DNA from: Verrucomicrobiia bacterium
GTDB taxonomy: Bacteria > Verrucomicrobiota > Verrucomicrobiia > Limisphaerales > UBA11358
Length of the DNA: 40,356 nt
Assembly: GCA_036501565.1 (NCBI GenBank)
Contig: DASYAA010000079.1
Coordinates: 1-40,356, forward strand
Direction of reading: 5' to 3'
Below, one piece after another: positions 2-38,858 of this stretch. Numbering within the stretch: position 1 is the first letter of the stretch; every line of letters begins with the position of its first letter. Position numbers and translations under genes: made by a program. The notes under the pieces were generated by a model that saw nothing but the letters and a program-made list of their open reading frames with translations, made no database searches and was not told where the DNA came from.

Positions 2-265
2 GTGACGCATCGCGAAACGCCCGGCCACGCGGAGGACGGCGTGACTTACATGGTCGGCAACTGGCAGGAAGACGCGCCGCTCATCGCCATCGTCGGCGAC
101 GCGATTTTCGCCGGCTCGATGGGCAATGGCAACGGCGCTTGGGATTTGGCGAAACAAAAAGTGCGCGAACAGATTTTATCACTGCCGCCGGAAACTTTGA
201 TTTGTCCCGGTCACGGCCCGTTGACGACGGTGGCGGAAGAAAAAGAACACAATCCGTTCTTTTAA
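2..265 (+). CDS. MBL-fold metallo-hydrolase (glyoxalase II-like), C-terminal fragment; the 5' end lies outside the window
   Basis: The ORF runs off the left edge. Motifs TPGH, GDAIFAGSMG and PGHGPLTT..E..NPFF are typical of the C-terminal half of the metallo-beta-lactamase fold. Confidence 0.8.
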   Translation: MTHRETPGHAEDGVTYMVGNWQEDAPLIAIVGDAIFAGSMGNGNGAWDLAKQKVREQILSLPPETLICPGHGPLTTVAEEKEHNPFF

Positions 266-807
266 TGAATCCGAAACTTAAATTGAGCAAGCTAGATTGT
301 GCTCGTCGTCAACTGGAATTGGCCATTGAACTTTTTTTCATGGAACGTGATCCAGTATCAATTCACACGCTTGCTGGAGCTACTTATCAGTTATTGGCTG
401 ACATTAACAAGCATCGAGGTGGCAAACCGCTCACGACAGAATTAGAAGGACTCAAAAGATTTGTTATTCCTGGAAAAGAAAAAGAATTGGCTCAATTGTT
501 CAAAGAGGCAGAAAACTTTTTCAAGCACGCAGATCGCGATCCAGAAGGAGTGATTGATTTTTCTCCTGAAATTAATGAGTTGCTCCTTTGGGAAGCTAGT
601 CTCAAATATTCGGAGCTAACATCAGAAGAAACTTCGGCCATGGTGGCTATGCAACTTTGGTTTCAAGTCAAACATCCAGAATATTTCAAACTTGAAGCGT
701 CAAAACATAATAAATTCAAGCAGTCAGCACTTTGGGCAAAATCTGTGGGGAAAAAACAATTTTATAGAGAAATTCTGGCAGCCTCTTTACTTCAAGGAGC
801 CAAATGA
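265..807 (+). CDS. Hypothetical protein, predicted all-alpha, AT-rich orphan
   Basis: The ATG at 265 overlaps the upstream TAA (TAATG). The open frame is 180 codons (MNPKLKLSKLDCARRQLELAIELFF...). GC is about 40% by eye against about 60% in the flanks. I recognise no family. Confidence 0.6.
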   Translation: MNPKLKLSKLDCARRQLELAIELFFMERDPVSIHTLAGATYQLLADINKHRGGKPLTTELEGLKRFVIPGKEKELAQLFKEAENFFKHADRDPEGVIDFSPEINELLLWEASLKYSELTSEETSAMVAMQLWFQVKHPEYFKLEASKHNKFKQSALWAKSVGKKQFYREILAASLLQGAK

Positions 808-883
808 TGATTTTCGTCTAAATTTGAAAATTGACCGCTTCCGTTCGCGTTGTTAATTTCTTCACCCGTTTCCAAACGGTTTT

Positions 884-1357
884 ATGCGACACACCATTTC
901 AATTCTCGTCGAGAACAAGTTCGGCGTGCTCACGCGCGTGGCCGGGCTGTTCAGCGGGCGCGGCTACAACATTGACACCCTCAACGTCGGCCCGACGCAC
1001 GACCCGAAATTGTCGCGCATGACTATCGTCACGACCGGCGACGAGGCGACGCTGGAACAAATCGTCAAGCAGCTCAACAAATTGCCGAACGTGATCAAGG
1101 TGCAGAATTTCAGCGAGGGCGAATATGTGGACCGCGAACTCTTGCTGGTGAAAGTCGGCGTGGATTCCAAGTCGCGCGCCGAGGTGATGCAGATCACGGA
1201 CATTTTCCGCGCGAAAATCGTGGACGTGCAGCCCAAGTCGCTGACGATTGAAATCACCGGCAACGACAGCAAGGTGGAAAAATTCCTCGACCTGATGAAA
1301 ACATTCGGCGTGCAGGAAATCACGCGCACGGGCAAAGCGGCCTTGCCGAGAAAGTAA
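884..1357 (+). CDS. ilvN: Acetolactate synthase small (regulatory) subunit
   Basis: 157 aa. The N-terminus MRHTISILVENKFGVLTRVAGLFSGRGYNIDTLNV...LSRMTIVT matches the conserved ACT-domain AHAS small subunit (IlvH/IlvN). It is followed by ilvC. Confidence 0.95.
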   Translation: MRHTISILVENKFGVLTRVAGLFSGRGYNIDTLNVGPTHDPKLSRMTIVTTGDEATLEQIVKQLNKLPNVIKVQNFSEGEYVDRELLLVKVGVDSKSRAEVMQITDIFRAKIVDVQPKSLTIEITGNDSKVEKFLDLMKTFGVQEITRTGKAALPRK

Positions 1358-1362
1358 TTTTC

Positions 1363-1394
1363 ATTCGTAAATCGTAAATCAAAATCGTAAATTC
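1363..1394. repeat. Heptamer-type tandem repeat (A/T)TCGTAA in the ilvN-ilvC spacer
   Basis: The sequence attcgtaa atcgtaa atcaaa atcgtaa attc was read directly. Confidence 0.7.
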
Positions 1395-1398
1395 AATT

Positions 1399-2424
1399 AT
1401 GCCTGCAAAAGTTTATACGGACAAAGACGCGAATCTCGCGGTGCTCAAAAACAAAACCCTCGCCGTGCTCGGCTTCGGCTCGCAAGGCCACGCCCACGCG
1501 CTCAATCTCAAAGAGAGCGGCTGCAACGTCATCATCGGCCTTTACGAAGGCAGCAAGTCCATACCCGTCGCGCGCGAAAAAGGTTTCAAGGTCTACTCGA
1601 CGGCGGAAGCCGTGCGCCGCGCGGACGTGATTTTCGTCGCGATCCCCGACACCAAGCAGCCGAAGGCTTACGAAAAAGACATCGCGCCGAATCTGACCAA
1701 GGGCAAAACACTTTTGTTCTCGCACGGCTTCGCGATCCATTTCAAAACCGTTGTGCCGCCGAAAAATGTGGATGTGATCCTTGTCGCGCCGAAAGGGCCG
1801 GGTCACATCGTCCGCCGCCAGTTTCTCGAAGGCAAGGGCGTTCCCGCGCTTATCGGCATTTATCAAAATCCGAGCGGCAAGGCCAAGGCCGTCGCGCTCG
1901 CGTGGGCCAAGGGCATCGGCGGCACGCGCGCCGGCGTCATCCAGACTTCCTTCAAGGAAGAGACCGAGACCGATTTGTTCGGCGAGCAGACCGTGTTGTG
2001 CGGCGGCGCGAGCGCGTTGATCCAGGCCGGATACGAAACGCTCGTCGAGGCCGGTTACCAGCCGGAGATGGCCTACTTCGAATGTCTGCACGAATTGAAG
2101 CTCATCGTGGATTTGATGAACGAGGCGGGCATCAGCGGAATGCGGTTTTCAATTTCCGAAACCGCCAAGTGGGGCGACATTTCCGTCGGGCCAAAAATCA
2201 TTGACGCCAGCGTGAAGAAACGCATGAAGTCCGCGCTCAAGGACATCCAGTCCGGAAAATTCGCCAAAGGCTGGGTGGCCGAATACAAAGGCGGCTACAA
2301 AAAATACAACGCTCTGATGAAAAAAGGCGCGAACCATCCCATCGAAAAAGTGGGCGAACGTCTGCGCGGCCTGATGCCGTGGATGAAAAAACGCTCCATC
2401 AAAGGCACGCAAGCCGCGTATTGA
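1399..2424 (+). CDS. ilvC: Ketol-acid reductoisomerase (class I)
   Basis: 341 aa. It carries the [17 protein letters not shown] Rossmann motif and is collinear with KARI throughout. Confidence 0.97.
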
Positions 2425-2440
2425 TTTGCGATTAAAACAC

Positions 2441-2478
2441 AAAAGCCGCTGGAGAAATCCGGCGGCTTTTTGTTTTAT
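2441..2478 (+). terminator. Rho-independent terminator after ilvC
   Basis: The stem aaaagccgctgg / ccggcggctttt (one G-U pair) has a 6-nt loop and is followed by tgtttt. Confidence 0.6.
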
Positions 2479-2653
2479 GCGTGTCGCCGTTGCGGACAGC
2501 CTATTGTGTTTAGGTTCCCCAAAAAGGGTGACTTAAAAACAAAACCGCTAGTTCCACAACAGCGCGGCAAGCCCATACCAATCCATATACATGGAAAATG
2601 TGGGCAGCTTGGATTCCACTTGAATTAGTGGAGTTCAAAAGTTGAAACAACAA

Positions 2654-2695
2654 GGACGGGTCTTGCGAAATAACAAGACCGTCCCCTTTTATTTT
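2654..2695. terminator. Hairpin terminator, probably bidirectional, serving argJ on the minus strand
   Basis: The stem is ggacgggtcttg / caagaccgtcc. It is followed by ccttttatttt on the plus strand and by ttgttgtttc on the minus strand. It lies about 40 nt downstream of the argJ stop. Confidence 0.5.
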
Positions 2696-2728
2696 GAATC
2701 TGTGTTCAATCTGTGTTTCATCTGTGGC
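2696..2728. repeat. Three tandem units of about 10-11 nt (AATCTGTGTTY); member of the ATC(C/T)GTG dispersed repeat family
   Basis: The sequence gaatctgtgttc aatctgtgtttc atctgtggc lies directly after the argJ stop. Related to 12649..12676 and 4115..4171. Confidence 0.65.
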
Positions 2729-2736
2729 TAAAAAAA

Positions 2737-4065
2737 TCAGCCGCCCAGCGACGCCGGATCGCCAACGTCGCCTTTGTTGAAGTCCACATAATCCTCCGTC
2801 AAATCACAGGCATACATCACCGCGCCCGCCTTGCCGAGATTCAGATTGATATGCAAATCAAATTCCTTCGGCGCAACGGCGACACAAAGTTGCTTGAACG
2901 TCGCCTGCGTCGGCTGCCCGCGTTTCAAGCTCCAAAGAATTTTTTTGCCGCCGCTCGCGCTGTAACCGATGTCCACTTTTCCCTCGACGATTTTCGCGGA
3001 CGAATAACCCAACGCATCAATGATGCGTCCCCAATTTGGATCGCCGCCGTGCCAGCTCGTCTTCACCAGCGCGCTGTTCGCCACCGCACGCGCGGCGGCA
3101 TCGGCGTCGGAAATTGTTTTCGCGCCATTCACCCGCACCGTCACGACGCGATGCACGCCCTCGCCATCACGCACAATCATCTTCGCCAGTTCGAGGCAGA
3201 CGTGATTCAAAGCGGATTGGAAAATCGTGAATCGTGAATCGTGAATCGTGAATCGTTTGTTTCCCGCCAGTCCATTTGCCAGAACCAAAACCGTGTCATT
3301 CGTGCTCATGTCGCCGTCCACGGTGATGCGGTTGAAACTGTTCGCGACGGCTTCATTCAATGCCGCCTGCAAAATTTTCGCGTCAATCGCCGCGTCCGTC
3401 GTGATGAAACACAACATTGTCGCGTGCAATCCGCCATGCGGCAAAGTCGCCGGACGCGCGCCAGTCGGACTCATGCCCGGCTGAATCATCCCCGCGCCTT
3501 TGCAGATGCCGCCGATGCGGACTTTTTTTCCGCCGAGCGAAAATTCAATTGCGATTTGTTTCGGGCGCGAATCGCTGGTCATGATTGCTTCCGCCGCGTG
3601 GTCGGCATTTTTAATTTCGCTGCCCAGCAACGTCGCCGCTTCAAAGATTCCCGCGCGGACATTGTCCATCGGCATCGTCACGCCGATGCGCCCGGTTGAA
3701 CCGATGAGCGCCGAGCCTTTCGGAAAATTTAGCGCGCATTCGGTGAACGAAACCATTTCACGCGCGTCGGCCAAACCTTGTTTGCCCGTGCAGGCATTTG
3801 CATTGCCGGAATTCACAACCAAGACTTGCGCTGTTCCGTTTTTAATTCGCTCAACGCAAACCTTCACCGGCGCGGCGCAGATTTGATTCGTCGTGAACAT
3901 TCCGGCGACTGTCGCGGATGTTTCGGAAATGATAAGTGCGAGGTCGCGCTTCGGGCCTTTGTTCGAGCCTTTGCCAGTGCCGAGACGTTTGATGTCGCAA
4001 AAAACGCCGCTGGCCATGAAACCAATTGGCACGACAATTGAACCGGGAATTTCTTTGAACTTCAT
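2737..4065 (-). CDS. argJ: Bifunctional glutamate N-acetyltransferase / amino-acid acetyltransferase (ornithine acetyltransferase)
   Basis: The autoprocessing-site motif ATMLCFITTDA and the motifs NSGNANACTG and VRDGEG are present. The ATG at 4065 is preferred over the in-frame TTG at 4071. Confidence 0.95.
   Translation of the reverse strand: MKFKEIPGSIVVPIGFMASGVFCDIKRLGTGKGSNKGPKRDLALIISETSATVAGMFTTNQICAAPVKVCVERIKNGTAQVLVVNSGNANACTGKQGLADAREMVSFTECALNFPKGSALIGSTGRIGVTMPMDNVRAGIFEAATLLGSEIKNADHAAEAIMTSDSRPKQIAIEFSLGGKKVRIGGICKGAGMIQPGMSPTGARPATLPHGGLHATMLCFITTDAAIDAKILQAALNEAVANSFNRITVDGDMSTNDTVLVLANGLAGNKRFTIHDSRFTIFQSALNHVCLELAKMIVRDGEGVHRVVTVRVNGAKTISDADAAARAVANSALVKTSWHGGDPNWGRIIDALGYSSAKIVEGKVDIGYSASGGKKILWSLKRGQPTQATFKQLCVAVAPKEFDLHINLNLGKAGAVMYACDLTEDYVDFNKGDVGDPASLGG
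3223..3256. repeat. Heptanucleotide tandem repeat (AATCGTG x4 plus a partial copy) inside argJ
   Basis: Four perfect copies at 3223-3250 plus aatcgt. Translated on the minus strand it gives RFTIHDSRFTIF. Confidence 0.9.
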
Positions 4066-8644: not shown

Positions 8645-9606
8645 TTTCGCAAAGTAAAAAGTCCTTGCGGGCGCGTCAGCATGAGCACAATCAGCAGCAG
8701 CGAATAAATGACCATGCGCGCGTTGCCGACCCAGCTTAATGGAAATTCTTGGGCGATGCCGGGAATGTGTTCGATGTCGGCGAGCGCCCGCAATCCTTCC
8801 GGCAGCAACGTCAGCAAAATCGCGGCAAGGATGACGCCGATGGTGTTGCCCATGCCGCCGAGAATGACCATGACGACAAAAGCGATGGATTGCATGAAAC
8901 CAAATCCGTCAGGCGTGAGAAATTGTTTCGAATGCGCGTAAAGTCCGCCGGCGATGCCCGCAAAAAACGCGCCGATGACAAACGCGGTGACTTTGTATTT
9001 GGTTGGATTGATGCCGGTCGCTTCGGCGGCGATTTCGTCGTCGCGCACGGCGATGAAGCCGCGGCCATAAGTGGAATGAACGAGCGACGTGACGACATAG
9101 ACGGTCACGGCGGCCAGCCCGAACGTCCAGAAGAAATTCGTGTAATTATGCGTGACACTATAACCGCGCGCGCCGCCGACGGATTGCATATTTTGAAAAA
9201 TGACGCGGATGATTTCGCCGAAGCCCAGCGTGACGATGGCCAGATAATCGCCGCGCAAACGCAGCGTGGGAATGCCGACGAGCAAGCCGGCGATTGCCGC
9301 CGCGAGTCCGCCCGCGACCAGCGCGACAATAAAAACTCCGTTCGCGGCAAAAAAATTCAATTCGCCGAATTGATTCGTGATGACTGCCGCCGTGTAAGCG
9401 CCCACGGCCATAAACCCGGCGTGGCCGAGCGAAAACTGGCCGGTGTAGCCGTTGATCAAATTCAGGCTGACGGCGAGAATGATGTTGACGCCGATGTCGT
9501 AGGAAATGAAGAGCCAGTAGGAATTGATTTGATTTTCAAAAAGCGAAACCAGAAAGCACAACGCGATTGCACCGAGCAAAAAAGTTTTGGCGTGTCTGAA
9601 ATTCAT
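8626..9606 (-). CDS. livM: Branched-chain amino-acid ABC transporter permease (LivM type)
   Basis: 326 aa, polytopic membrane protein. The motif GQFSLGHAGFMAVGAY is present. There is an ATGA overlap with livH. Confidence 0.9.
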   Translation of the reverse strand: MNFRHAKTFLLGAIALCFLVSLFENQINSYWLFISYDIGVNIILAVSLNLINGYTGQFSLGHAGFMAVGAYTAAVITNQFGELNFFAANGVFIVALVAGGLAAAIAGLLVGIPTLRLRGDYLAIVTLGFGEIIRVIFQNMQSVGGARGYSVTHNYTNFFWTFGLAAVTVYVVTSLVHSTYGRGFIAVRDDEIAAEATGINPTKYKVTAFVIGAFFAGIAGGLYAHSKQFLTPDGFGFMQSIAFVVMVILGGMGNTIGVILAAILLTLLPEGLRALADIEHIPGIAQEFPLSWVGNARMVIYSLLLIVLMLTRPQGLFTLRKLKIKN

Positions 9607-10508
9607 ACTTTCTCAATTTCCTTTTTGCCCAGCAGCCCGGACGGTTTGACGAGCAAAATTAAAATCAAAATTCCAAACGCGATGGCGTCGCGGTAGGTTG
9701 AGGAAATATAGCCCGCCACGAGCGTTTCGGTGACGCCGATGATGATGCCGCCGAGCGCCGCGCCGGGCAGATTGCCGATGCCGCCCAGCACCGCCGCGAC
9801 GAATGCCTTGAGTCCCGGCAAAATTCCCATGAGTGGATCAATCGCCGGATAATTGACGGCAAACAAAATTCCCGCCGCCGCCGCGAGCGCGGAGCCGAGC
9901 GCAAACGTGAACGAAATCACAACGTCGGTGTTGATGCCCATGAGCGCCGCCGCGTCGGGATTGAACGCCAGCGCGCGCATCGCCGTGCCGATTTTTGTTT
10001 TCTGCACGATGAACCGCAACCCGACCAGCAGCAGCGCGGTCACAATGAACACGATGATTTGATTGCTCGTGACGCTCAAGCCGCCGACGTGGGTGATGGG
10101 ATAGGACGGGATGAGCGCGGGAAATTTTTTTGGCGCGGCGCCGAAGAAAAGCTGGCCGGCGTATTCGAGAAAAAGTGAAACGCCAATCGCGGTGATCAGC
10201 ACGGTCAATCTCGGGCTGCGCCGTAATGGGCGATAGGCGAATCGTTCGATCACAATTCCCAACGCGGCGCAAATCGCCATTGAAATTCCCATGACGAGAA
10301 GGCCGCTCAAAATGGATGGCGTCGGAAAAATCGCGGCGATTTTTGGCGTGAGATAAAATCCGGCGAACGCGCCGAGCATGAAAATGTCGCCGTGCGCGAA
10401 ATTGATGAACCGGAGAATTCCATAAACCATCGTGTAGCCGAGCGCGATGAGCGCGAGAATCGAGCCAAGCGCGAGACCGTTGATGAGTTGCTGCAAAAAT
10501 TCAGTCAT
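9603..10508 (-). CDS. livH: Branched-chain amino-acid ABC transporter permease (LivH type)
   Basis: 301 aa, polytopic. The N-terminus is QQLINGL..GSILALIALGYTMVYG and the motif INFAHGD is present. Confidence 0.9.
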   Translation of the reverse strand: MTEFLQQLINGLALGSILALIALGYTMVYGILRFINFAHGDIFMLGAFAGFYLTPKIAAIFPTPSILSGLLVMGISMAICAALGIVIERFAYRPLRRSPRLTVLITAIGVSLFLEYAGQLFFGAAPKKFPALIPSYPITHVGGLSVTSNQIIVFIVTALLLVGLRFIVQKTKIGTAMRALAFNPDAAALMGINTDVVISFTFALGSALAAAAGILFAVNYPAIDPLMGILPGLKAFVAAVLGGIGNLPGAALGGIIIGVTETLVAGYISSTYRDAIAFGILILILLVKPSGLLGKKEIEKV

Positions 10509-22871: not shown

Positions 22872-24320
22872 TTATTTGAGAACGCTTGCCGCTTGCTCGG
22901 CGAGATTCAAAACTGTGTTCGGAAAAATTCCGAGCCAGAGCATTCCGGCGATGCAAATCACCAGCGAAAATTTTATCGGCGACGATAAAAAAATGGGCGA
23001 TAAATCCGGCGTGTATTTACTCCAAAAAATCGCGCGCACAACGCCAAAATAATAATAGAGCGAAATGACCACTCCGGCGAGCGCGATGAATGCGAGCCAA
23101 TAATAAGCGTGATTTTGAGCGCCCTGTTCGATGACGGCGCGCAGCAATAAAAATTTTCCAAAAAATCCAGCGAGCGGTGGAATGCCCGCGAGCGAAATCA
23201 TCGCGAGCGTCATCGTTGAGGCGAGCAGCGGCGAACGTTGATTCAATCCGGCCAGCGTGGAAATATCTTCGCTTTCCAAATGTTGCATCACGAGAACGAT
23301 GACCGTGAACGACGCGACGACGGTAAATAAATATCCGGCGAAATAATACATGAGTGCCGCCTGCCCGCTCGCGCTCAATGCCGCCACGCCAAGCAGCAAA
23401 TAACCCGCGTGCGCGATGCTCGAATAACCGAGCAGCCGTTTCAAATTGCGTTGCGGAATCGCGCACAAATTTCCGTAAAGAATTGTGGCGGCGGAAATGA
23501 TAATTAAAAAATTTTGCCAATGCGCCGCGACGCTCGGAATTGCCGTGAACAAAACGCGCAGCAGCAAAACAAATCCGGCGGCTTTAGAACCGACAGCAAG
23601 AAACGCGGTCGTCGGCGTGGGCGCGCCTTGATAAACGTCGGGCACCCAGATTTGAAACGGCACAGCGGCGATTTTGAATCCAAGCCCGGTGAGCAAAAAT
23701 AAAACGCCGATCAGAAAAATTTTGTTATCGAGAAATTGCGGCGCGACTTGCGCGAGTTCGGTAAAATTCATTTTGCCGGTCGTTCCCCAAATCAGCGCGA
23801 TACCAAAAACCATGAACGCGGACGACAACGCGCCGATGATTAAATATTTCACGCCCGCTTCAAGTGAAGCCATTTTGTTGCGCTGAAAACTGACGAGCAC
23901 GTAAAACGGGACGGTGATAAGTTCGATGGAAACGAAGAGCATCGCAAAATTATTTGAGGAAGCCGCGAACAACATTCCCGCCAGCGCAAAAATGATGAGC
24001 GAATAAAATTCAGAAATGCCGCTGGAAATTTTTTCGGAAAATTCCGCCGACAAGAATAAAACGAGAATTGCGGCGGTGAGAAAAAATCTTTTGAAAAATA
24101 AAGCGAGTCCGTCTTCGATGAACGAGCCCGTGAACGCGGTGCCGAACGAACTGCAAATGCCTTCGCCGCTAAAACTGATGAGCAATAGAACACCGAGCGC
24201 GACTGCGCCGAAATATGCGAGAAATTTTTTGCGCGCGGGAGAAATCCAAAAATCCGCGAGCAGCAGCACGATGCCGATGGCGATGACGCAAAGCTCGAGG
24301 GTGATCAATGAGGAGTTCAT
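22872..24320 (-). CDS. nuoN: NADH-quinone oxidoreductase subunit N
   Basis: About 482 aa polytopic antiporter-like subunit and the last gene of the nuo array. The ATG at 24320 shares one base with the nuoM TGA (TGATG); a TTG at 24323 is also in frame. Confidence 0.93.
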   Translation of the reverse strand: MNSSLITLELCVIAIGIVLLLADFWISPARKKFLAYFGAVALGVLLLISFSGEGICSSFGTAFTGSFIEDGLALFFKRFFLTAAILVLFLSAEFSEKISSGISEFYSLIIFALAGMLFAASSNNFAMLFVSIELITVPFYVLVSFQRNKMASLEAGVKYLIIGALSSAFMVFGIALIWGTTGKMNFTELAQVAPQFLDNKIFLIGVLFLLTGLGFKIAAVPFQIWVPDVYQGAPTPTTAFLAVGSKAAGFVLLLRVLFTAIPSVAAHWQNFLIIISAATILYGNLCAIPQRNLKRLLGYSSIAHAGYLLLGVAALSASGQAALMYYFAGYLFTVVASFTVIVLVMQHLESEDISTLAGLNQRSPLLASTMTLAMISLAGIPPLAGFFGKFLLLRAVIEQGAQNHAYYWLAFIALAGVVISLYYYFGVVRAIFWSKYTPDLSPIFLSSPIKFSLVICIAGMLWLGIFPNTVLNLAEQAASVLK

Positions 24321-25873
24321 CAATTTGGGATTGCGGATTGCGGATTGCGGATTTCTGAAATGGCAGCAACGTTTTGTTTTTCAACAGTCGAATTTGCCAG
24401 GCTCACGATTTTTTGCGCGTCAGGATTGATTTTTTCCGTCAGCAATTTCGGCAGGAAGCCGAACAGCAGGAGGCTCGCCAGCAAAAGCGCGTAAGGCAGT
24501 TTGCGCCAGACGTTCGAGGCGTCGGTGAGGGTTGAAAATTTTTCCGAGACCGGCCCGTGCAAAATGTCGCGGATGGCGCGCGTCATGTAAACCGCGCCGA
24601 TGATGAGCGCGCCCCAAACAGCGAGCGTCGTCACGAGCGGAAAAATTTTCCACGAGCCGAAGAAGACGGTGACTTCGCCGACGAAATTCGCGAAGCCGGG
24701 CAAGCCGCAACCGGCCATTGCCGCCATCAACAGTGCCGTGCCAATGAATCGCAACGGACGGCAAAGTCCACCGAGTTCGCTGATTTGGAGCGTGCCGGTT
24801 TTTTGATAAATGTAACCGCTCAAGGCGAATGTCAGCGCTGCGAGAAATCCGTGCGCGATCATGATCAAAACCGCGCCGGTCACGCCGACGATATTCAGGC
24901 TCGCGATGCCAAGGAAAATGAAGCCCATGTGCGCCACGCTGGAATTGCCGATGAGCAGGTTCAAATCTTTTTGTTTCATGGCGACCCAGCCGACATACAA
25001 AATGTTGCCGAGGCAAAGCCACGCGAGAATTTGCATCCAATGTTGCGCGGCCTGCGGCATCAGCGGCAGCGCGATGCGGATCAAACCGTAGAGGCCGAAT
25101 TTTTTCAGCACGCCGGCGTGAAGCATCGCGGTCGGCGCAGGCGCAACGCCGTAGCCAAGCGGTGCCCAAGAATGGAACGGCCAGAGCGAAACCAAAATCC
25201 CAAATCCGAACAACAGCAGCGGGAAAATAAGATTCTGCGCGTTCGACGTCAGCGGATGCGCCGCGATGTATTCCGTGAGTTTTGGAATGTCAAATGTGTT
25301 CGCGCCGGATTTCAGATAGAGCGCGATGAGACCGATGAGCGCGATGAGCGCGCCGAGGCTTAAGTAAATCGTGATTTGGAACGTTGCGTAATTTTTCCGT
25401 TCGCCGCGTCCCCAGACGCCGATCATGATGAACGTCGGGATCAGCGCGAATTCGTGGAACGCGTAAAAGAAAAACAGATCGAGCGACGCGAACGCGCCGA
25501 GGATGCCGCCGGTCATCACAAGTAGCAAAATGTAAAATTCCTTTTCGCGCGTCTGGATTTCACACGAGCAGAGCGCGGCGGCGAACGCGACGATTGCGCC
25601 CATCAAAATCAGGCCGACGTTCAAGCCGTCCACGCCGACGTGATAACTGATGCCGAGTGATGCGACCCACGGGATTTGCTGCACGAAGCGATAGCCATCC
25701 GCGTCCACCGGCGTGCCGGCGTATTGGCAAAACATTTTCACGGCGAGCGCCGCCGAAATGAGCGTCGCCAAAACCGCGATGGCGCGGATGATGACGCGGT
25801 AATTGCGCGGCACGAACACCAGCAACAGTGCTGCCAGCAGCGGCCAGCCTAAAATGTAAGTCAGTATGGACAT
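24320..25873 (-). CDS. nuoM: NADH-quinone oxidoreductase subunit M
   Basis: Polytopic antiporter-like subunit whose position and length fit NuoM. The ATG at 25873 (MSILTYILGWPLL) is preferred; an in-frame TTG at 25885 is the alternative. Confidence 0.93.
   Translation of the reverse strand: MSILTYILGWPLLAALLLVFVPRNYRVIIRAIAVLATLISAALAVKMFCQYAGTPVDADGYRFVQQIPWVASLGISYHVGVDGLNVGLILMGAIVAFAAALCSCEIQTREKEFYILLLVMTGGILGAFASLDLFFFYAFHEFALIPTFIMIGVWGRGERKNYATFQITIYLSLGALIALIGLIALYLKSGANTFDIPKLTEYIAAHPLTSNAQNLIFPLLLFGFGILVSLWPFHSWAPLGYGVAPAPTAMLHAGVLKKFGLYGLIRIALPLMPQAAQHWMQILAWLCLGNILYVGWVAMKQKDLNLLIGNSSVAHMGFIFLGIASLNIVGVTGAVLIMIAHGFLAALTFALSGYIYQKTGTLQISELGGLCRPLRFIGTALLMAAMAGCGLPGFANFVGEVTVFFGSWKIFPLVTTLAVWGALIIGAVYMTRAIRDILHGPVSEKFSTLTDASNVWRKLPYALLLASLLLFGFLPKLLTEKINPDAQKIVSLANSTVEKQNVAAISEIRNPQSAIPN
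24329..24353. repeat. Heptanucleotide tandem repeat GATTGCG x3 plus a partial copy at the nuoM 3' end
   Basis: Copies lie at 24329-24335, 24336-24342 and 24343-24349, followed by gatt. They encode the NuoM tail IRNPQSAIPN. Confidence 0.85.
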
Positions 25874-25888
25874 TTTATTTTCCAAAAA

Positions 25889-26302
25889 TCATGGCCGGGT
25901 TTCTTCCGGCAACAAACTCAACACAAAATCATAAATTTCCCGCGCCTGTTTAAGCGCTTCATCAAATTCTTCGCGCGTAGGCATCGTTTCGGACAAATCG
26001 TCCGGGTAGCGAAATTCCCAGGCGTAAGGCGTCAACGCCGCCGCCGCCGGAACAAATTTATCGAAACGCGGTTCAATCGCGGAGGCTTCAACCGCCAGCT
26101 TGCGAATGTCGTGCGTTTTTTCCGGCGTGATTTCTTTGAACACCAGAAATGATTTCACGGCTTTTTCGGCGCCCTGCTGGCAATGATAAATCGCCACGTC
26201 GAGCGGACCTTCCGGGTCGTTGCTCAAAACGCGCGCGCTCCGCAAATCGCCGGCGGCTTTGGTCAGCCAGGAACGCACAAGTTGTCTGTGAGTTTCATCC
26301 AT
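25889..26302 (-). CDS. HEPN domain protein (PF05168-like; putative toxin partner of the upstream nucleotidyltransferase)
   Basis: 137 aa, all-alpha. AGDLRSA..L, the conserved KTHDIRKL helix and EFRYPDD are as seen in small HEPN proteins paired with MNT genes. It overlaps the MNT gene by 8 nt. Confidence 0.8.
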   Translation of the reverse strand: MDETHRQLVRSWLTKAAGDLRSARVLSNDPEGPLDVAIYHCQQGAEKAVKSFLVFKEITPEKTHDIRKLAVEASAIEPRFDKFVPAAAALTPYAWEFRYPDDLSETMPTREEFDEALKQAREIYDFVLSLLPEETRP

Positions 26303-26615
26303 AGAGTTTGCGTCCCCGCTTCAAAATGTCCTGCGTCAAACTTCCGCGAACGTCGCGCACGCGATTCACCTCCCGGCGCGTCCTGACCAAAATGTCGGCG
26401 GAAATCAGTAGTCTGCCCAGACAATGCTGCGCGCGCTGGTCGCGGCGAATCGGCCGCTCGTCGCTTTGCGGGACGATGACCATGAAATCCACGTCGCTGT
26501 CCTCGGTCGGCGCGCCCCACGCGTGCGAGCCGAACAAATAAATTTCCTCCGGTTGAAATTCATTTTTCAACCGTTCAACCGCTTCGTCCAATAAATGTTG
26601 CGGGACGATTTTCAT
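26295..26615 (-). CDS. Minimal nucleotidyltransferase (MNT, NTP_transf_2-like; putative antitoxin)
   Basis: 106 aa with the motif IYLFGSHAWGAPTEDSDVDFMVIV (G-S ... D-x-D polymerase-beta-fold signature). Its ATG directly abuts the nuoL TAA (TAAATG). Confidence 0.88.
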   Translation of the reverse strand: MKIVPQHLLDEAVERLKNEFQPEEIYLFGSHAWGAPTEDSDVDFMVIVPQSDERPIRRDQRAQHCLGRLLISADILVRTRREVNRVRDVRGSLTQDILKRGRKLYG

Positions 26616-28484
26616 TTATTTTCCCAAAACAAAATAGAGCAACAGCGCCACGCCGAGCACGAACAGAAAAGCGTAGGTTTGCAAGTTGCCGGTTTGCATG
26701 AGGCGCAGGGCGCGTCCGCTCAAATCCGTGCCGCCGCGAATCGCGCCGATGCAAAAACCTTCGACGAGCCAGCGGTCAATCCAATCGGCGACCGTTGCGA
26801 TGAAATCATGCGCGCGGATGAAAGTGGCTTCGTAAAGTTCGTCGAAATAAAAGCGGTTTTTCATCGCCGTCGCGAGACCGCCGAGTTTCGCGGGCAATGG
26901 ATCAGTTGACGCTTTGACGTAAAGTTTGAATGCCAAAGTGAAGCCGATGATGAAAGCAAGAATGCCGAGTGACGCGGCGAGAGGCGAATGGATGAACGGC
27001 GCGAAAAGTGTCGCGGCAAAACCGGCGGATTTTTCCGCTCCGTCGGGAAAATTGTAGTGGTAAATTCCTTCGATGCCGATGACGCCGCCGATCAAACTGA
27101 AACCGGCCAGCACGATCAGCGGCAAGGTGATGACCGCCGGTGATTCGTGCGCGTGCGAGGCTGCGTCGGATTTTTCCGCGCCGTAAAAAACGACGAAGAA
27201 AAGTCGGAAAATATAAAATGTCGTGAGTCCGGCGATGAAGACGGCGTTGGCGAACAGAAGATAATTATGCTGCGCGAGGGCTTGCGCGAAAATGCTGTCC
27301 TTGCTGAAAAATCCGCTCATCGGCCACACGCCGGAAAGCGCGAGCGCGCCGATGAGAAATGTCCAGAATGTCACCGGCATTTTCTTTCGCAGATTTCCCA
27401 TTTTCCAGATGTCCTGCTCGTGATGCGTCGCGAGAATGACCGAGCCGGCGCTCAAGAACAGCAGCGCTTTGAAAAATGCGTGCGTCGTCAAATGAAACAT
27501 CGCAGGCACGGGACCGGCGAGGCCGACGGCCATGACCATGTAACCGAGTTGCGACAGCGTCGAGTAGGCGATGATGCGTTTGATGTCGTTTTGCTGGACA
27601 GCGATGAGCGCGGCGAGCAACGCGGTGAATCCGCCGATGTAAGCGATGACGTGCAGCGCGTCGGCGTTGAGCAAAAAGAAAATGCGGCAGAGCATATAGA
27701 CACCGGCGGCAACCATTGTTGCGGCGTGGATGAGCGCAGAAACCGGCGTCGGGCCTTCCATGGCATCCGGCAACCAGACGTGCAGCGGGAATTGAGCGGA
27801 TTTGCCGACGGCACCGCAGAAAATCAGAAGTCCGGCGGTGGTTGCCATCGCGCCGATCGCGGCGGGGTTGGCGACAATTGAATTTTGCAGCGCGGAAAAA
27901 TTCAGCGAACCGAGAATTCCCCAGACCATTAAAATGCCGAGCAAAAATCCGAAGTCGCCGAGGCGATTGACGATGAAGGCTTTTTTCGCGGCGTCGCCGG
28001 CGCTGGGTTTTTCAAACCAGAATCCGATGAGCAGGTAGCTGGACACGCCGACGAGTTCCCAGAAGATGAACATCTCGATGAAATTGTTCGCGAGCACGAT
28101 GCCGAGCATCGAGAACGTGAACAGGCTCATGAACGCGAAGAAACGCGCCATGCCTTTGTCTTCGTGCATATAGCCGAAGGAATAAATGTGGATCGCGCCG
28201 CCGACGCCGGTGATGATGAGCAGCATCATAAGGCTCAACGCGTCGAGCTTGAGGCCGAAGTCAACGTGCAGGTCGCCGATGGTGAGCCAGTTCGTCGAAG
28301 TTTCCGCATTGATGTGAAATCCATTCGCGCTGATAAAAATAATTGTCAGAATAAATCCGGCGACGACTGCGCCGATGGAGATGAGACTGCTCATCGTTTT
28401 GCAACGCAACGTGAAAAGCGTTATCACCACCACTGACAGCAGCGGCAGGAACAAAATGATCCAAGGCAAAATTTCGTATTTCAT
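26616..28484 (-). CDS. nuoL: NADH-quinone oxidoreductase subunit L
   Basis: 622 aa polytopic antiporter-like subunit with a C-terminal lateral-helix extension. It follows nuoK. Confidence 0.95.
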   Translation of the reverse strand: MKYEILPWIILFLPLLSVVVITLFTLRCKTMSSLISIGAVVAGFILTIIFISANGFHINAETSTNWLTIGDLHVDFGLKLDALSLMMLLIITGVGGAIHIYSFGYMHEDKGMARFFAFMSLFTFSMLGIVLANNFIEMFIFWELVGVSSYLLIGFWFEKPSAGDAAKKAFIVNRLGDFGFLLGILMVWGILGSLNFSALQNSIVANPAAIGAMATTAGLLIFCGAVGKSAQFPLHVWLPDAMEGPTPVSALIHAATMVAAGVYMLCRIFFLLNADALHVIAYIGGFTALLAALIAVQQNDIKRIIAYSTLSQLGYMVMAVGLAGPVPAMFHLTTHAFFKALLFLSAGSVILATHHEQDIWKMGNLRKKMPVTFWTFLIGALALSGVWPMSGFFSKDSIFAQALAQHNYLLFANAVFIAGLTTFYIFRLFFVVFYGAEKSDAASHAHESPAVITLPLIVLAGFSLIGGVIGIEGIYHYNFPDGAEKSAGFAATLFAPFIHSPLAASLGILAFIIGFTLAFKLYVKASTDPLPAKLGGLATAMKNRFYFDELYEATFIRAHDFIATVADWIDRWLVEGFCIGAIRGGTDLSGRALRLMQTGNLQTYAFLFVLGVALLLYFVLGK

Positions 28485-32697: not shown

Positions 32698-32940
32698 TCA
32701 AATTTCTCCGCGTCGCAAATCTTCAATCGGGAAAATCATTTCAAAATCTCCCCACATCAAATCGCCGTTCTGAATATGGAATGACTTGAATTGTTTCAGG
32801 CGACGATATTTTGAAAACATCGGATTCTGCGCCTTCTTCAGAAACGGCCCGAAGTCAACGAGGCGATGCTTGCCGTCGTTGAATTCAACGTCCACCTTGT
32901 AACGGGGAACATAGCTGGCGTGTTTCACTCGCAAATACAT
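32698..32940 (-). CDS. DUF2442 domain protein
   Basis: 80 aa. The pattern Y.V.VEFNDG..R.VDF.PFL ... F..F.I.NG.L.WGD.EMIFPIEDL is typical of DUF2442 as I remember it. It sits 3 nt after the DUF4160 gene and 3 nt before the nuoG ATG. Confidence 0.8.
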   Translation of the reverse strand: MYLRVKHASYVPRYKVDVEFNDGKHRLVDFGPFLKKAQNPMFSKYRRLKQFKSFHIQNGDLMWGDFEMIFPIEDLRRGEI

Positions 32941-32943
32941 ATT

Positions 32944-33249
32944 CTATTTAATTTTCCGCGTAATAATTTCAGGTTTCACGACTTTGTTCAAAACGAAAAC
33001 ATCCGACCACTTTTTCAAAATATCCTCGGCCTTCGCGTTCACCAGTTCGGCAAAATGTTTTCTGACTTTGCCGGACAGCGGACGGCGATTCGACACGCGG
33101 CAAAACCGGATGGAAACAATTTTTCCATCGCGCGTAATGATTTCAGCTTTTGTCTCAAGCTCGCCATAACGACCATGCACATGAACCGGCAAATGTTCGC
33201 CCGCAAAAAAGAAAACCGAAATGCCAAGATATTCATAAAGTTTGGGCAT
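32944..33249 (-). CDS. DUF4160 domain protein
   Basis: 101 aa. MPKLYEYLGISVFFFAGEHLPVHVHGRYGE matches the DUF4160 N-terminal signature (MP....G..i.my..EH.PPH.H..Y.e). The ATG is 7 nt after the nuoF stop. Confidence 0.8.
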   Translation of the reverse strand: MPKLYEYLGISVFFFAGEHLPVHVHGRYGELETKAEIITRDGKIVSIRFCRVSNRRPLSGKVRKHFAELVNAKAEDILKKWSDVFVLNKVVKPEIITRKIK

Positions 33250-34740: not shown

Positions 34741-34814
34741 TGCCCGATGGTGTAACGGTAGCACAGCAGACTCTGAATCTGTTTGTCATGGTTCAAATCC
34801 ATGTCGGGCAACCA
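34741..34814 (+). tRNA. tRNA-Gln (anticodon CUG), with encoded CCA
   Basis: Hand-folded cloverleaf: acceptor TGCCCGA/TCGGGCA; D arm GTGT-AACGGTA-GCAC; anticodon arm GCAGA-CTCTGAA-TCTGT (U33, CUG, A37); variable loop TTGT; T arm CATGG-TTCAAAT-CCATG; discriminator A; CCA. The U1-A72 pair is typical of bacterial tRNA-Gln. Confidence 0.9.
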
Positions 34815-37364: not shown

Positions 37365-37898
37365 TCACGCTGCCGCTTCTTCTTTTTTCAAGTGAAACAT
37401 TTTCAAATCCGCGAGCACCGGCTCTTTGCTGATTTTATTTTGCAATTTCATCAGCGCGTCAATCAACGCTTCGGGGCGCGGCGGACAACCGGCCACATAA
37501 ACATCCACCGGCAAAATCCGGTCCACGCCTTGCAGCACGGCGTAACTGCGATACATTCCGCCGGTCGAGGCGCACGCGCCCATCGCGATGCACCATTTGG
37601 GTTCGGCCATTTGATCCCAGACGCGCTTGACGGCGGTGGCCATTTTGTAAGTGACCGTGCCGGCAACGATCATGCAATCGGCCTGTCGCGGCGAAAAACG
37701 CATCACTTCGGAACCAAATCGGGAAATATCGAAACGGCTCGCGCCGACGGCCATCAATTCAATCGCGCAGCAGGCCAAACCCATTGGCATCGGCCAGACG
37801 GAATTTTTACGAAACCAATTGAGCGCGGCGTCAACCGTGGTGACGACAACGTCGCCCTCAATTTTTGAATTATAACCGACTTCGCTTTCAGTTCGCAT
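37365..37898 (-). CDS. nuoB: NADH-quinone oxidoreductase subunit B
   Basis: 177 aa with [16 protein letters not shown] and GCPPRPEAL (N2 cluster ligands). Confidence 0.96.
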
Positions 37899-37964
37899 AA
37901 TCTTGCCGCCTCAAAACAGAGACAACTCAGCGTAACTCCTGCTAAAATCTCCGGCAAGTCAATT

Positions 37965-37980
37965 TGTGATTTTTTTCACA
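37965..37980. promoter_or_regulatory. Candidate CRP/FNR-family binding site: perfect TGTGA-N6-TCACA palindrome
   Basis: tgtga tttttt tcaca was read directly. Its centre is about 74 nt upstream of the nuoB ATG and about 133 nt upstream of the divergent Tmk-like gene. Confidence 0.45.
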
Positions 37981-38105
37981 AGGATTCGAGAATTTGCGTT
38001 GTCACCGAAAATTAACAAACGAAAACGGCTGCCATCGGTTATCAACTTGCGCCTTGTGAGCGGCGGCGGTTTGGCTAAAATGACAAAACGCTGCTGGCGC
38101 GAATT

Positions 38106-38858
38106 ATGAAAACTTTTGCCGAATTGAATTTTCCGGGACGATTGATCGCCGTCGAAGGACTCGACGGTTCGGGCAAGTCAACGCAGATTTATCTGCTCAA
38201 ACGCTGGCTCGAAGCGGAAGGCATCAAGGTCTATTTCAGCGAATGGAATTCTTCCGAGCTGGTAAAATCCGCGACGAGCAAAGGTAAAAAGCGCGAACTG
38301 CTCACGCCGACGACTTTCAGTTTGATCCACGCGACGGATTTTGCCGACCGTTACGAGCGCCATTTGCTGCCGCTTCTGCGCGCCGGTTATATTGTGCTGT
38401 GCGACCGTTATGCATTCACAGCGTTTGCGCGCGACACGGTTCGCGGCTGTCCGCCTGAATGGGTTCGCGGACTTTACAATTTCGCCGCGCAGCCCGACCT
38501 CACGGTTTTTTTCAAAACGGATTTGGAAGTTTCGCTGAACCGGATTTTGGAAGGCCGTCCGAAATTGAAATTCTTCGAGGCTGGAATGGATTTGCGGCTT
38601 TCGACCGATCCTTACGAAAGTTTCCGCATTTTTCAGGGGCGCATTTTGGATCAATATGTCGCGATGACCGAAGAATTCAAGTTCATCGTCATGGACGCGA
38701 ACGAAAACGTCGAAAAACAGCAGGTGATTTTCCGAAAACTCGTGAGCGAGAAAATTGATTTGAGAAAATTCCGGCGCAAAAGTCCGCTGCCATTGCCGCC
38801 GTCTGTTCGCGTCGAGGAAAAAATGAGGGAAATCGAAGAGGATTTGGCCGCCGCATGA
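38106..38858 (+). CDS. Thymidylate-kinase-fold P-loop kinase, divergent (paralog 1)
   Basis: 250 aa with P-loop VEGLDGSGKST and CDRY (the DRY/DRH position of Tmk). I cannot find the (T)REPGG motif. The C-terminal tail is charged. Confidence 0.8.
   Translation: MKTFAELNFPGRLIAVEGLDGSGKSTQIYLLKRWLEAEGIKVYFSEWNSSELVKSATSKGKKRELLTPTTFSLIHATDFADRYERHLLPLLRAGYIVLCDRYAFTAFARDTVRGCPPEWVRGLYNFAAQPDLTVFFKTDLEVSLNRILEGRPKLKFFEAGMDLRLSTDPYESFRIFQGRILDQYVAMTEEFKFIVMDANENVEKQQVIFRKLVSEKIDLRKFRRKSPLPLPPSVRVEEKMREIEEDLAAA

Follow-up and report, generated by a model that had tools for sequence, protein, structure and literature searches.

A Class II MNT/HEPN cassette seated between nuoL and nuoM in a verrucomicrobial complex I operon

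The two embedded genes and their junctions

We analysed a stretch of 40,356 nt from a Verrucomicrobiia bacterium (contig DASYAA010000079.1, assembly GCA_036501565.1; metagenomic-type data), here called the window, whose minus strand carries a complex I operon in the order nuoB-C-D-E, nuoF, nuoG-H-I-J-K-L, two small open reading frames (ORFs) and nuoM-nuoN. The two small ORFs, which encode a minimal nucleotidyltransferase (MNT) and a HEPN protein, make up the cassette that is the subject of this report (Table 1). On the minus strand the MNT start codon directly abuts the nuoL stop codon (TAA, 26616-26618), reading TAAATG; MNT and HEPN then overlap by 8 nt, ATGGATGA, which implies that translation is probably coupled within the pair; and 15 nt separate the HEPN stop codon (TGA, 25889-25891) from the nuoM ATG. 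All these positions had been given in a first-pass annotation of the window and proved correct in the sequence. An in-frame TTG at 25885, which the same annotation had mentioned, exists, but was rejected as the start of nuoM: NuoM keeps its N-terminus, MSILTYI, at the ATG in every relative, and the equivalent bases fall within nuoL in relatives with an empty site.

The empty site is known from three relatives (L001, L002 and L003), whose junction is identical and consists of the nuoL TAA, one base and the nuoM ATG (TAAAATG), within GTTTTGGGAAAATAAAATGTCC; the site can also be written GGGAAAATAAAATG. NuoL of the window is 73-77% identical to that of L001, L002 and L004. In the window this junction is present twice, as a 15-nt direct repeat. 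The left copy, TTTTGGGAAAATAAA, comprises the final codons of nuoL, its TAA and the first base of the MNT ATG; the right copy, TTTTTGGAAAATAAA, stands with one mismatch in front of nuoM. In a repeat search the two copies were 93% identical in the window and 100% identical in L081, at a spacing of 741 nt; the repeat is also perfect in L082, and in L099 and L110 the right copy has decayed yet is recognisable. The left junction of the window, and of the relatives nearly identical to it, reads ...GTTTTGGGAAAATAA followed immediately by ATGAAAATC, and the right junction CCATGA followed by TTTTGGGAAAATAAAATGTCC. The inserted DNA thus appears to be the two ORFs, from ATG to TGA, plus the target duplicate. 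Since the junction is duplicated, MNT would use the former initiation context of nuoM, and nuoM the copy; the right repeat would in this way recreate the ancestral translation-initiation context ahead of nuoM.

The nuoL-MNT-HEPN-nuoM layout recurs in independent assemblies, namely L081 (JGI 3300036819), L082 (NCBI metagenome-assembled genome GCA_036267885.1), L108, L099-L103 (several ENA samples) and L110, and because of this recurrence the junction does not appear to be an assembly artefact at the contig level. Its details vary among carriers. In the window, L081 and L082 (99-100% identity) the nuoL TAA abuts the MNT ATG, and the HEPN TGA is followed by 15 nt and the nuoM ATG. In L108 (97%) the nuoL stop overlaps the MNT start as ATGA, an apparent 4-nt deletion relative to the other carriers, and the right junction lies beyond the contig. 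The L099-L103 group (MNT 77%, HEPN 79%) has TAA abutting ATG on the left and a HEPN gene extended to 141 aa on the right, where its TAA abuts the nuoM ATG; in L110 (MNT 85%, HEPN 74%) TAG abuts the MNT ATG, and the HEPN stop is followed by 3 nt and the nuoM ATG. The seamless insertion described in the first-pass annotation is therefore seen, as abutting or overlapping junctions, in the window and in its relatives, and a survey of the nuoL-nuoM junction yielded four diverged carrier lineages alongside the empty sites. In one scaffold, L098 (ERZ28573516 scaffold_213127, positions 1290-1650), two cassettes appear to stand in tandem, separated by a nuoM 5' piece joined to a nuoL 3' piece, and the second MNT contains a stretch of N; strain variants have probably been mis-joined here, and the duplication is probably not real.

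As to the surrounding genes, the interior of nuoL (about 26900-27400) is only 47-77% identical between the window and L108, compared with 93-98% for the cassette together with the final ~250 nt of nuoL and 84-89% farther upstream; the segment is either a hypervariable or recombined stretch or an alignment problem caused by indels. Between nuoE and nuoF stands a tRNA-Gln(CTG) gene, antisense to what would otherwise be a single transcription unit, and the operon may be split there. Past nuoB comes a thymidylate kinase gene that is transcribed divergently. No nuoA-like ORF of at least 60 aa was seen upstream of nuoB (window 37899-38105), and nuoA may lie elsewhere or have been overlooked.

Table 1. 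Positions of the cassette, its repeats and other features in the window
Feature	Position	Strand	Size or content	Evidence
nuoM (ATG at 25873)	24320-25873	minus	517 aa	Pfam Proton_antipo_M 7.1e-53
Right direct repeat	25874-25888	minus	15 nt	
HEPN	25889-26302	minus	137 aa	Pfam PF05168 4.2e-26
Hairpin in HEPN 3' end	25894-25910	minus		
MNT/HEPN overlap	26295-26302	minus	8 nt	sequence
MNT	26295-26615	minus	106 aa	Pfam PF01909 5.9e-11, Polbeta 8e-09
Left direct repeat	26615-26629	minus	15 nt	
nuoL	26616-28484	minus	622 aa	Pfam Proton_antipo_M 5e-83, Proton_antipo_N 1.1e-23
DUF2442 gene	32698-32940	minus		PF10387 7e-08
DUF4160 gene	32944-33249	minus		PF13711 1.3e-08
tRNA-Gln(CTG)	34741-34814	plus		Rfam 66 bits; ARAGORN
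nuoB	37365-37898	minus		
Thymidylate kinase gene	38106-38858			

Protein families and relation to known modules

The pair is a Class II HEPN/MNT module, combining PF01909 with PF05168. Searches with profile hidden Markov models placed HEPN in PF05168 (91.8 bits, profile positions 1-115 of 117) and not in DUF86, which bears out the nucleotidyltransferase and HEPN domains that had been read from the letters alone; PF05168 was the only Pfam match of HEPN, and NCBIfam gave none. The motifs quoted in the first-pass annotation are all present, GS...DVD in MNT and KTHDIRKL and EFRYPDD in HEPN. MNT has an intact GSx10DxD motif (G29 S30 ... D41 V42 D43) and a third acidic residue, D74, all of them invariant in an alignment of 32 paired cassettes. 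Against the MntA equivalog of NCBIfam (NF047752) it scores 32.8 bits, where the cutoff is 60. Among the PADLOC models MNT weakly matches the candidate PDC-S09 models (1e-09) and HEPN matches none, and the pair thus fits no single defence system there.

Across 127 diverse relatives of HEPN the conserved residues are W12, D19, H40, Q42, Q43, E46, K47, K50, H64, R98, Y99 and P100, with R98-Y99-P100 conserved at 94-98%. The Rx4-6H (RX4HXY) RNase motif is absent from the protein and from the family consensus, and no histidine follows R98 at a distance of 4-6 residues (RYPDDLSE); the caution that this is a small PF05168 HEPN lacking that motif was well placed. An AlphaFold2 model built with 45 homologues (pLDDT 91.1, pTM 0.87) has five helices, and its membership of the HEPN superfamily was confirmed by Foldseek, whose top matches in the Protein Data Bank (PDB) were all HEPN proteins. 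The nearest were ST0689 (1WOL) and TT1696 (1UFB; ~30% identity), at template modelling (TM) scores of 0.75-0.81, followed by the sacsin HEPN domain and AF0298. A profile search of PDB sequences with HEPN returned TT1696, ST0689 and TM0613 and no other convincing match. These three proteins (1O3U being the entry for TM0613) are thus the best matches in both sequence and fold, and share with HEPN the motifs QQxxEKxxK, H-x-I/L-xx-L and RYPD; they differ in coming from Thermus, Sulfolobus and Thermotoga, and are uncharacterised, with no known tie to respiratory operons.

Class II modules have been defined by an MNT that keeps GSx10DxD and by a HEPN protein in which RX4HXY is missing and a tyrosine is conserved (Yao et al. 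2020, PMC7641770). The present pair agrees with that class, and with the HEPN-T family of Anantharaman et al. 2013 (PMC3710099), in both Pfam families, in having MNT first and overlapping genes, in the GSx10DxD motif, and in a HEPN protein without RX4HXY that carries the tyrosine of a conserved R-Y-P and conserved histidines elsewhere (H64, H40). It departs from the described modules, which are treated as autonomous two-gene units, in that the nuo copy is packed ORF to ORF in a complex I operon, appears to have been long inherited and has no promoter-like motif; moreover, the class is more prevalent in archaea (PMC7641770), whereas the family of the window is verrucomicrobial.

The first-pass annotation had filed the pair with the toxin-antitoxin (TA) modules of type VII (HepT/MntA), and this assignment did not hold. 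Gene order, a minimal nucleotidyltransferase with GSx10DxD and the four-helix HEPN superfamily fold are common to both, as is a tyrosine beside a conserved arginine that, by analogy, could be AMPylated. However, HEPN of the window belongs to PF05168 and not to DUF86 (PF01934) or PF08780, RX4HXY is absent, MNT falls below the MntA cutoff, and the type VII HepT toxins (7AE8, 5YEP, 6M6W) are distant from the HEPN model, with TM scores of 0.35-0.57. Among the defining features of type VII considered, namely HEPN family, RX4HXY motif, MntA equivalog score and gene order, only the last is shared. In enzymes of the kanamycin nucleotidyltransferase type the same two folds act jointly, a nucleotidyltransferase domain being fused to a HEPN-like domain; in the window, by contrast, they are separate small proteins in a mobile cassette, with no antibiotic or other substrate context.

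Distribution, expression and history of the cassette

A word-indexed search returned 467 close homologues of HEPN, and 5,515 matches at E ≤ 0.001 were found among 50%-identity representatives. Only two of the 80 metagenome loci fetched with HEPN have the nuo location. MNT lies immediately upstream of HEPN in 74 of the 75 related loci with upstream sequence, and downstream in the other one, in agreement with the MNT-first order that had been called canonical; most related cassettes also have the same 8-nt overlap (tblastn coordinates). The same pair of 106 aa and 137 aa, at 69-80% identity, occurs in unrelated contexts: by a tRNA-synthetase-like gene, by a sulfatase gene, after ThiC, after gap-pgk-tpi and by DUF4258. 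Because the same pair recurs in many unrelated contexts, and only rarely in nuo, the family appears to be mobile among Verrucomicrobiota. No HEPN relatives were found in viral contigs, and plasmids carried distant HEPN proteins only (< 40% identity, mostly Bacillus). In three loci with a free-standing cassette (L083, L086 and L087, ∼170-3200) the neighbouring class II tRNA-synthetase-like gene appears split, in the order tRNA-synt_2b, HGTP_anticodon, a 577-aa AAA_15/AAA_21 ATPase gene and a second HGTP_anticodon ORF.

Upstream of free-standing MNT genes we found a two-box motif, (G)CTTTCAAT-N11-17-TGTGATAGAA, which ends 5-14 nt before the start codon, as in GCTTTCCATTCGCTTGGCACTGTGATAGAAACAAACC followed by ATG; it is seen, for example, in L089 and L096 (both at 3650-3687), L113, L120 and L125. 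The strict pattern was present in 24 of 38 unique free-standing upstream regions, as against 0.1% of shuffles, and by eye in several more as near-matches, but in none of the four nuo-embedded upstream regions. Its position suggests a promoter that would yield a near-leaderless mRNA, and possibly also an operator. A free-standing cassette bearing the motif is also flanked on one side by the 3' end of a gyrB/parE-like gene and on the other by the 5' end of a gyrA/parC-like gene (L193 / L147; Logan SRR30681647 contig; Ga0209746_1000398), both neighbours being named by eye from their translations; this site is another junction of two normally essential genes.

Within the embedded cassette the pattern scan listed no promoter-like sites, and across the region the promoter and terminator scans gave counts equal to the shuffled expectation. 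Rfam over the whole window returned the tRNA only, with nothing in or beside the cassette. Because the cassette's own promoter motif has been lost, no promoter-like site was listed inside it and its junctions are tight, it is most likely co-transcribed with nuoB..N and translated by chained coupling, and it is plausible that complex I synthesis is always accompanied by synthesis of the pair. The 3' end of the HEPN ORF contains a terminator-like element, a 5-bp all-GC hairpin, GCCGGAAGAAACCCGGC, followed by CATGATTTTT; we took it as a chance occurrence, as such matches are at shuffle level and by eye L099 and L110 have no such hairpin at the 3' end of HEPN.

In neighbour-joining trees of concatenated MNT and HEPN the nuo-embedded copies group together as a single clade, with bootstrap support of 100/100, and of 99/100 when the two closest free-standing copies are added; the clade sits on relatively long branches. 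Between carrier lineages the synonymous divergence (dS) of the cassette is 0.84-1.14, compared with 0.60-0.70 for nuoM. The ratio of non-synonymous to synonymous divergence (dN/dS) is 0.09-0.15 for MNT, 0.13 for HEPN and 0.11-0.17 for nuoM, and 0.08-0.21 among free-standing relatives. Since dN/dS is as low as that of nuoM, both genes appear to have long been kept functional under purifying selection. A recent foreign acquisition of the pair was rejected: the GC content of the cassette (0.57-0.59) is the same as that of the operon, and its dS is comparable with that of the host genes.

In a tree built from the 5' region of nuoM, carriers are intermingled with empty relatives: the window and L081 (carriers) are sister to L001 and L002 (empty; 94%), and L099 (carrier) is sister to L003 (empty; 74%). 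The simplest reading of this tree would be a single old insertion and, later on, two or more precise losses; because such a deletion would run between the 15-nt repeats, it would regenerate the empty site exactly. Alternatively, the cassette allele may have been moved by homologous recombination through the conserved nuoL and nuoM flanks. None of the 80 species-level relatives retrieved with NuoL, the closest included, has the window's pair near nuoL, and the cassette was for this lack of conservation with the operon rejected as a complex I operon component. As the pair is absent from related operons and free-standing elsewhere, we likewise do not regard it as an accessory subunit of complex I.

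Interpretation and other occupied nuo junctions

We favour, with a probability of about 0.6, the interpretation that a Class II MNT/HEPN cassette hitchhikes in the nuo operon and is co-expressed with complex I, and that an active MNT modifies and restrains HEPN, probably at Tyr99. A single insertion in the ancestor of a Limisphaerales-like subclade would have occurred exactly at the nuoL-stop/nuoM-start (TAAAATG), where only the two ORFs entered and ∼15 nt of target were duplicated. The resulting coupling chain would run from the nuoL TAA abutting the MNT ATG, through the 8-nt MNT/HEPN overlap, to the HEPN stop and the duplicated initiation region before nuoM. The empty relatives would have arisen later, either as the cassette was deleted precisely between the direct repeats or by homologous recombination via the nuoL and nuoM flanks. 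By analogy with Class I systems, the active MNT may nucleotidylate HEPN on the invariant tyrosine of R-Y-P and so hold it inactive, and the pair could then act as a type VII-like TA or abortive-defence system.

Several points weigh against this interpretation. Equal purifying selection on toxin and antitoxin over a dS of ∼1 is not usual for chromosomal TA toxins, and a 15-nt duplication is longer than expected of typical transposition; no recombinase is associated with the cassette. Co-transcription is argued from simple pattern scans that showed no signals, and the data on carriers and empty sites fit loss and lateral gain alike. HEPN has no Rx4-6H RNase motif. Finally, no biochemistry exists for Class II pairs, whose TA status awaits validation (Yao et al. 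2020, PMC7641770), and the published literature searched held nothing relevant on Class II biochemistry after 2020.

The missing RNase motif would also fit a different function, in which MNT and HEPN would not be a TA pair and would form a split kanamycin-nucleotidyltransferase-like enzyme; HEPN would be its substrate- or nucleotide-binding subunit, the target a small molecule or a third protein, and the nuo site a neutral or mildly useful expression platform. The conserved polar set (H40, Q42, Q43, E46, K47, K50, H64, R98, Y99) could form a binding site, the structures closest to HEPN are those of uncharacterised HEPN proteins and of the HEPN domain of sacsin rather than of RNase toxins, and equal purifying selection on both genes is as for two subunits; historically, too, HEPN was viewed as the substrate-binding subunit of MNT (PMC3710099). 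We nevertheless consider a split enzyme unlikely, though it deserves serious weight, as motif-less HEPN proteins were still toxins in a genome-scale screen (PMC3710099), the family resembles a mobile selfish cassette (unrelated contexts, its own promoter-like motif, patchy distribution), and the pair has no candidate substrate gene linked to it. The long retention of intact ORFs with dN/dS as low as that of nuoM, the loss of the promoter motif, the integration into the coupling pattern of the operon in four lineages and the relatively long branches of the embedded clade could also be taken as signs of domestication to a complex I-linked function, such as a brake on growth or translation that is coupled to synthesis of the respiratory chain, or the modification of a Nuo subunit. 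This is improbable in view of four close relatives (L001, L002, L003 and L004) that have the operon without the pair, which makes the pair dispensable for complex I; the free-standing relatives are similarly constrained and share the invariant residues, with no sign of changed function, and unrelated selfish-looking genes at nuo junctions elsewhere indicate a permissive site rather than a functional link.

It might also be supposed that nuoL-nuoM is a hotspot at which related cassettes inserted independently in several lineages, given the interleaving of carriers and empty relatives in the host tree and an unrelated MNT/HEPN pair at the same junction in L005. Independent insertion is, however, very hard to reconcile with the monophyly of the embedded copies (99-100% bootstrap), with a nuoL stop abutting the MNT ATG in three of the four lineages (L108 differing by the apparent 4-nt deletion only), with a recognisable remnant of the same right-hand duplication in the carriers (the right junction of L108 lying beyond its contig), and with a cassette dS that scales with that of the host. 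That the arrangement is an assembly or binning chimera scarcely merits belief: the window is of metagenomic type and the L098 scaffold looks mis-joined across an N gap, but the same arrangement is found with clean reading frames in at least eight independent contigs from different projects and four diverged lineages.

The module itself belongs to a known, uncharacterised class and is not a new kind of system; what is noteworthy is its promoterless, duplication-flanked, apparently ancient and selectively maintained context in an essential operon. Beyond what the first-pass annotation contained, the flanking 15-nt duplication, the probably old single-origin insertion and a second cassette in the same operon (see below) are new. 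In the published literature searched we found nothing relevant on TA modules located within a nuo operon. Class II HEPN/MNT pairs are numerous, but according to Yao et al. 2020 (PMC7641770) the class had seen no biochemical study. The family offers a natural experiment, with the same cassette free-standing behind a promoter-like motif, promoterless in an essential operon, and missing from closely related empty sites. It illustrates how a two-gene module may be accommodated in a tightly coupled operon that stays intact, the junction duplication preserving the downstream translation start, and suggests that a passenger of this kind can be retained under purifying selection across a synonymous divergence of ∼1. 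In genome annotation, gene pairs of this sort are not to be taken for new subunits of complex I. It is a speculative and rather doubtful extension that complex I junctions are long-term safe harbours for promoterless selfish cassettes, where the duplicated initiation region and the coupling would hinder removal save by exact excision (a position-based addiction), and where Class II activity would be tied stoichiometrically to respiratory-chain synthesis, possibly as a brake linking energy metabolism to growth arrest or phage defence.

The second cassette, a pair of DUF4160 and DUF2442 genes, lies between nuoF and nuoG, with spacers of 7, 3 and 3 nt and a GC content of 0.44-0.46, below that of the operon. 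Of the independent assemblies that have it, L188 matches the window at 100% identity, and in the diverged L189 the cassette is 93-97% and its flanks are 83-91% identical; the pair is absent from L002, L004 and L010. A flanking duplication was unconvincing here, amounting at most to a 5-nt TGAAA repeat.

Further genes occupy nuo junctions in related Verrucomicrobiota, where a gap of more than 250 nt among nuoK-L-M-N was found in 14 of 80 loci. These varied small cassettes (TA pairs, PD-(D/E)XK, GIY-YIG, four-helix-bundle) suggest that operon hitchhiking is general and little described. Small stand-alone genes of the kind that lodge in conserved loci (23S rRNA intervening-sequence protein PF05635, PDDEXK_3/GxxExxY, GIY-YIG, Uma2-like) resemble the MNT/HEPN cassette in being short, patchy and tightly packed at these junctions; they differ in belonging to other protein families and being mostly single genes. 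In L005 (JBBQYK010000196.1, 1054-6423) three TA-like pairs stand at successive junctions, HicA/HicB antisense at nuoK-nuoL, the unrelated MNT/PF05168-HEPN pair at nuoL-nuoM and Phd/PIN at nuoM-nuoN. Single genes confirmed by Pfam encode a SAM methyltransferase (L001), PDDEXK_3 (L022), 23S_rRNA_IVP (L041) and GIY-YIG (L034); the gene-holding nuo gap of L001/L002 lies at 9403-10280, and single small genes occupy nuo junctions in L025, L062, L050, L057 and L070 as well. Gaps with genes were also seen at nuoF-nuoG (L016, L030, L020, L058 and L078), including Uma2-like and further PDDEXK_3-like genes named by eye, and at other nuo gaps RAYT-like transposase, larger nuclease-like and four-helix-bundle-like genes were recognised in the same way.

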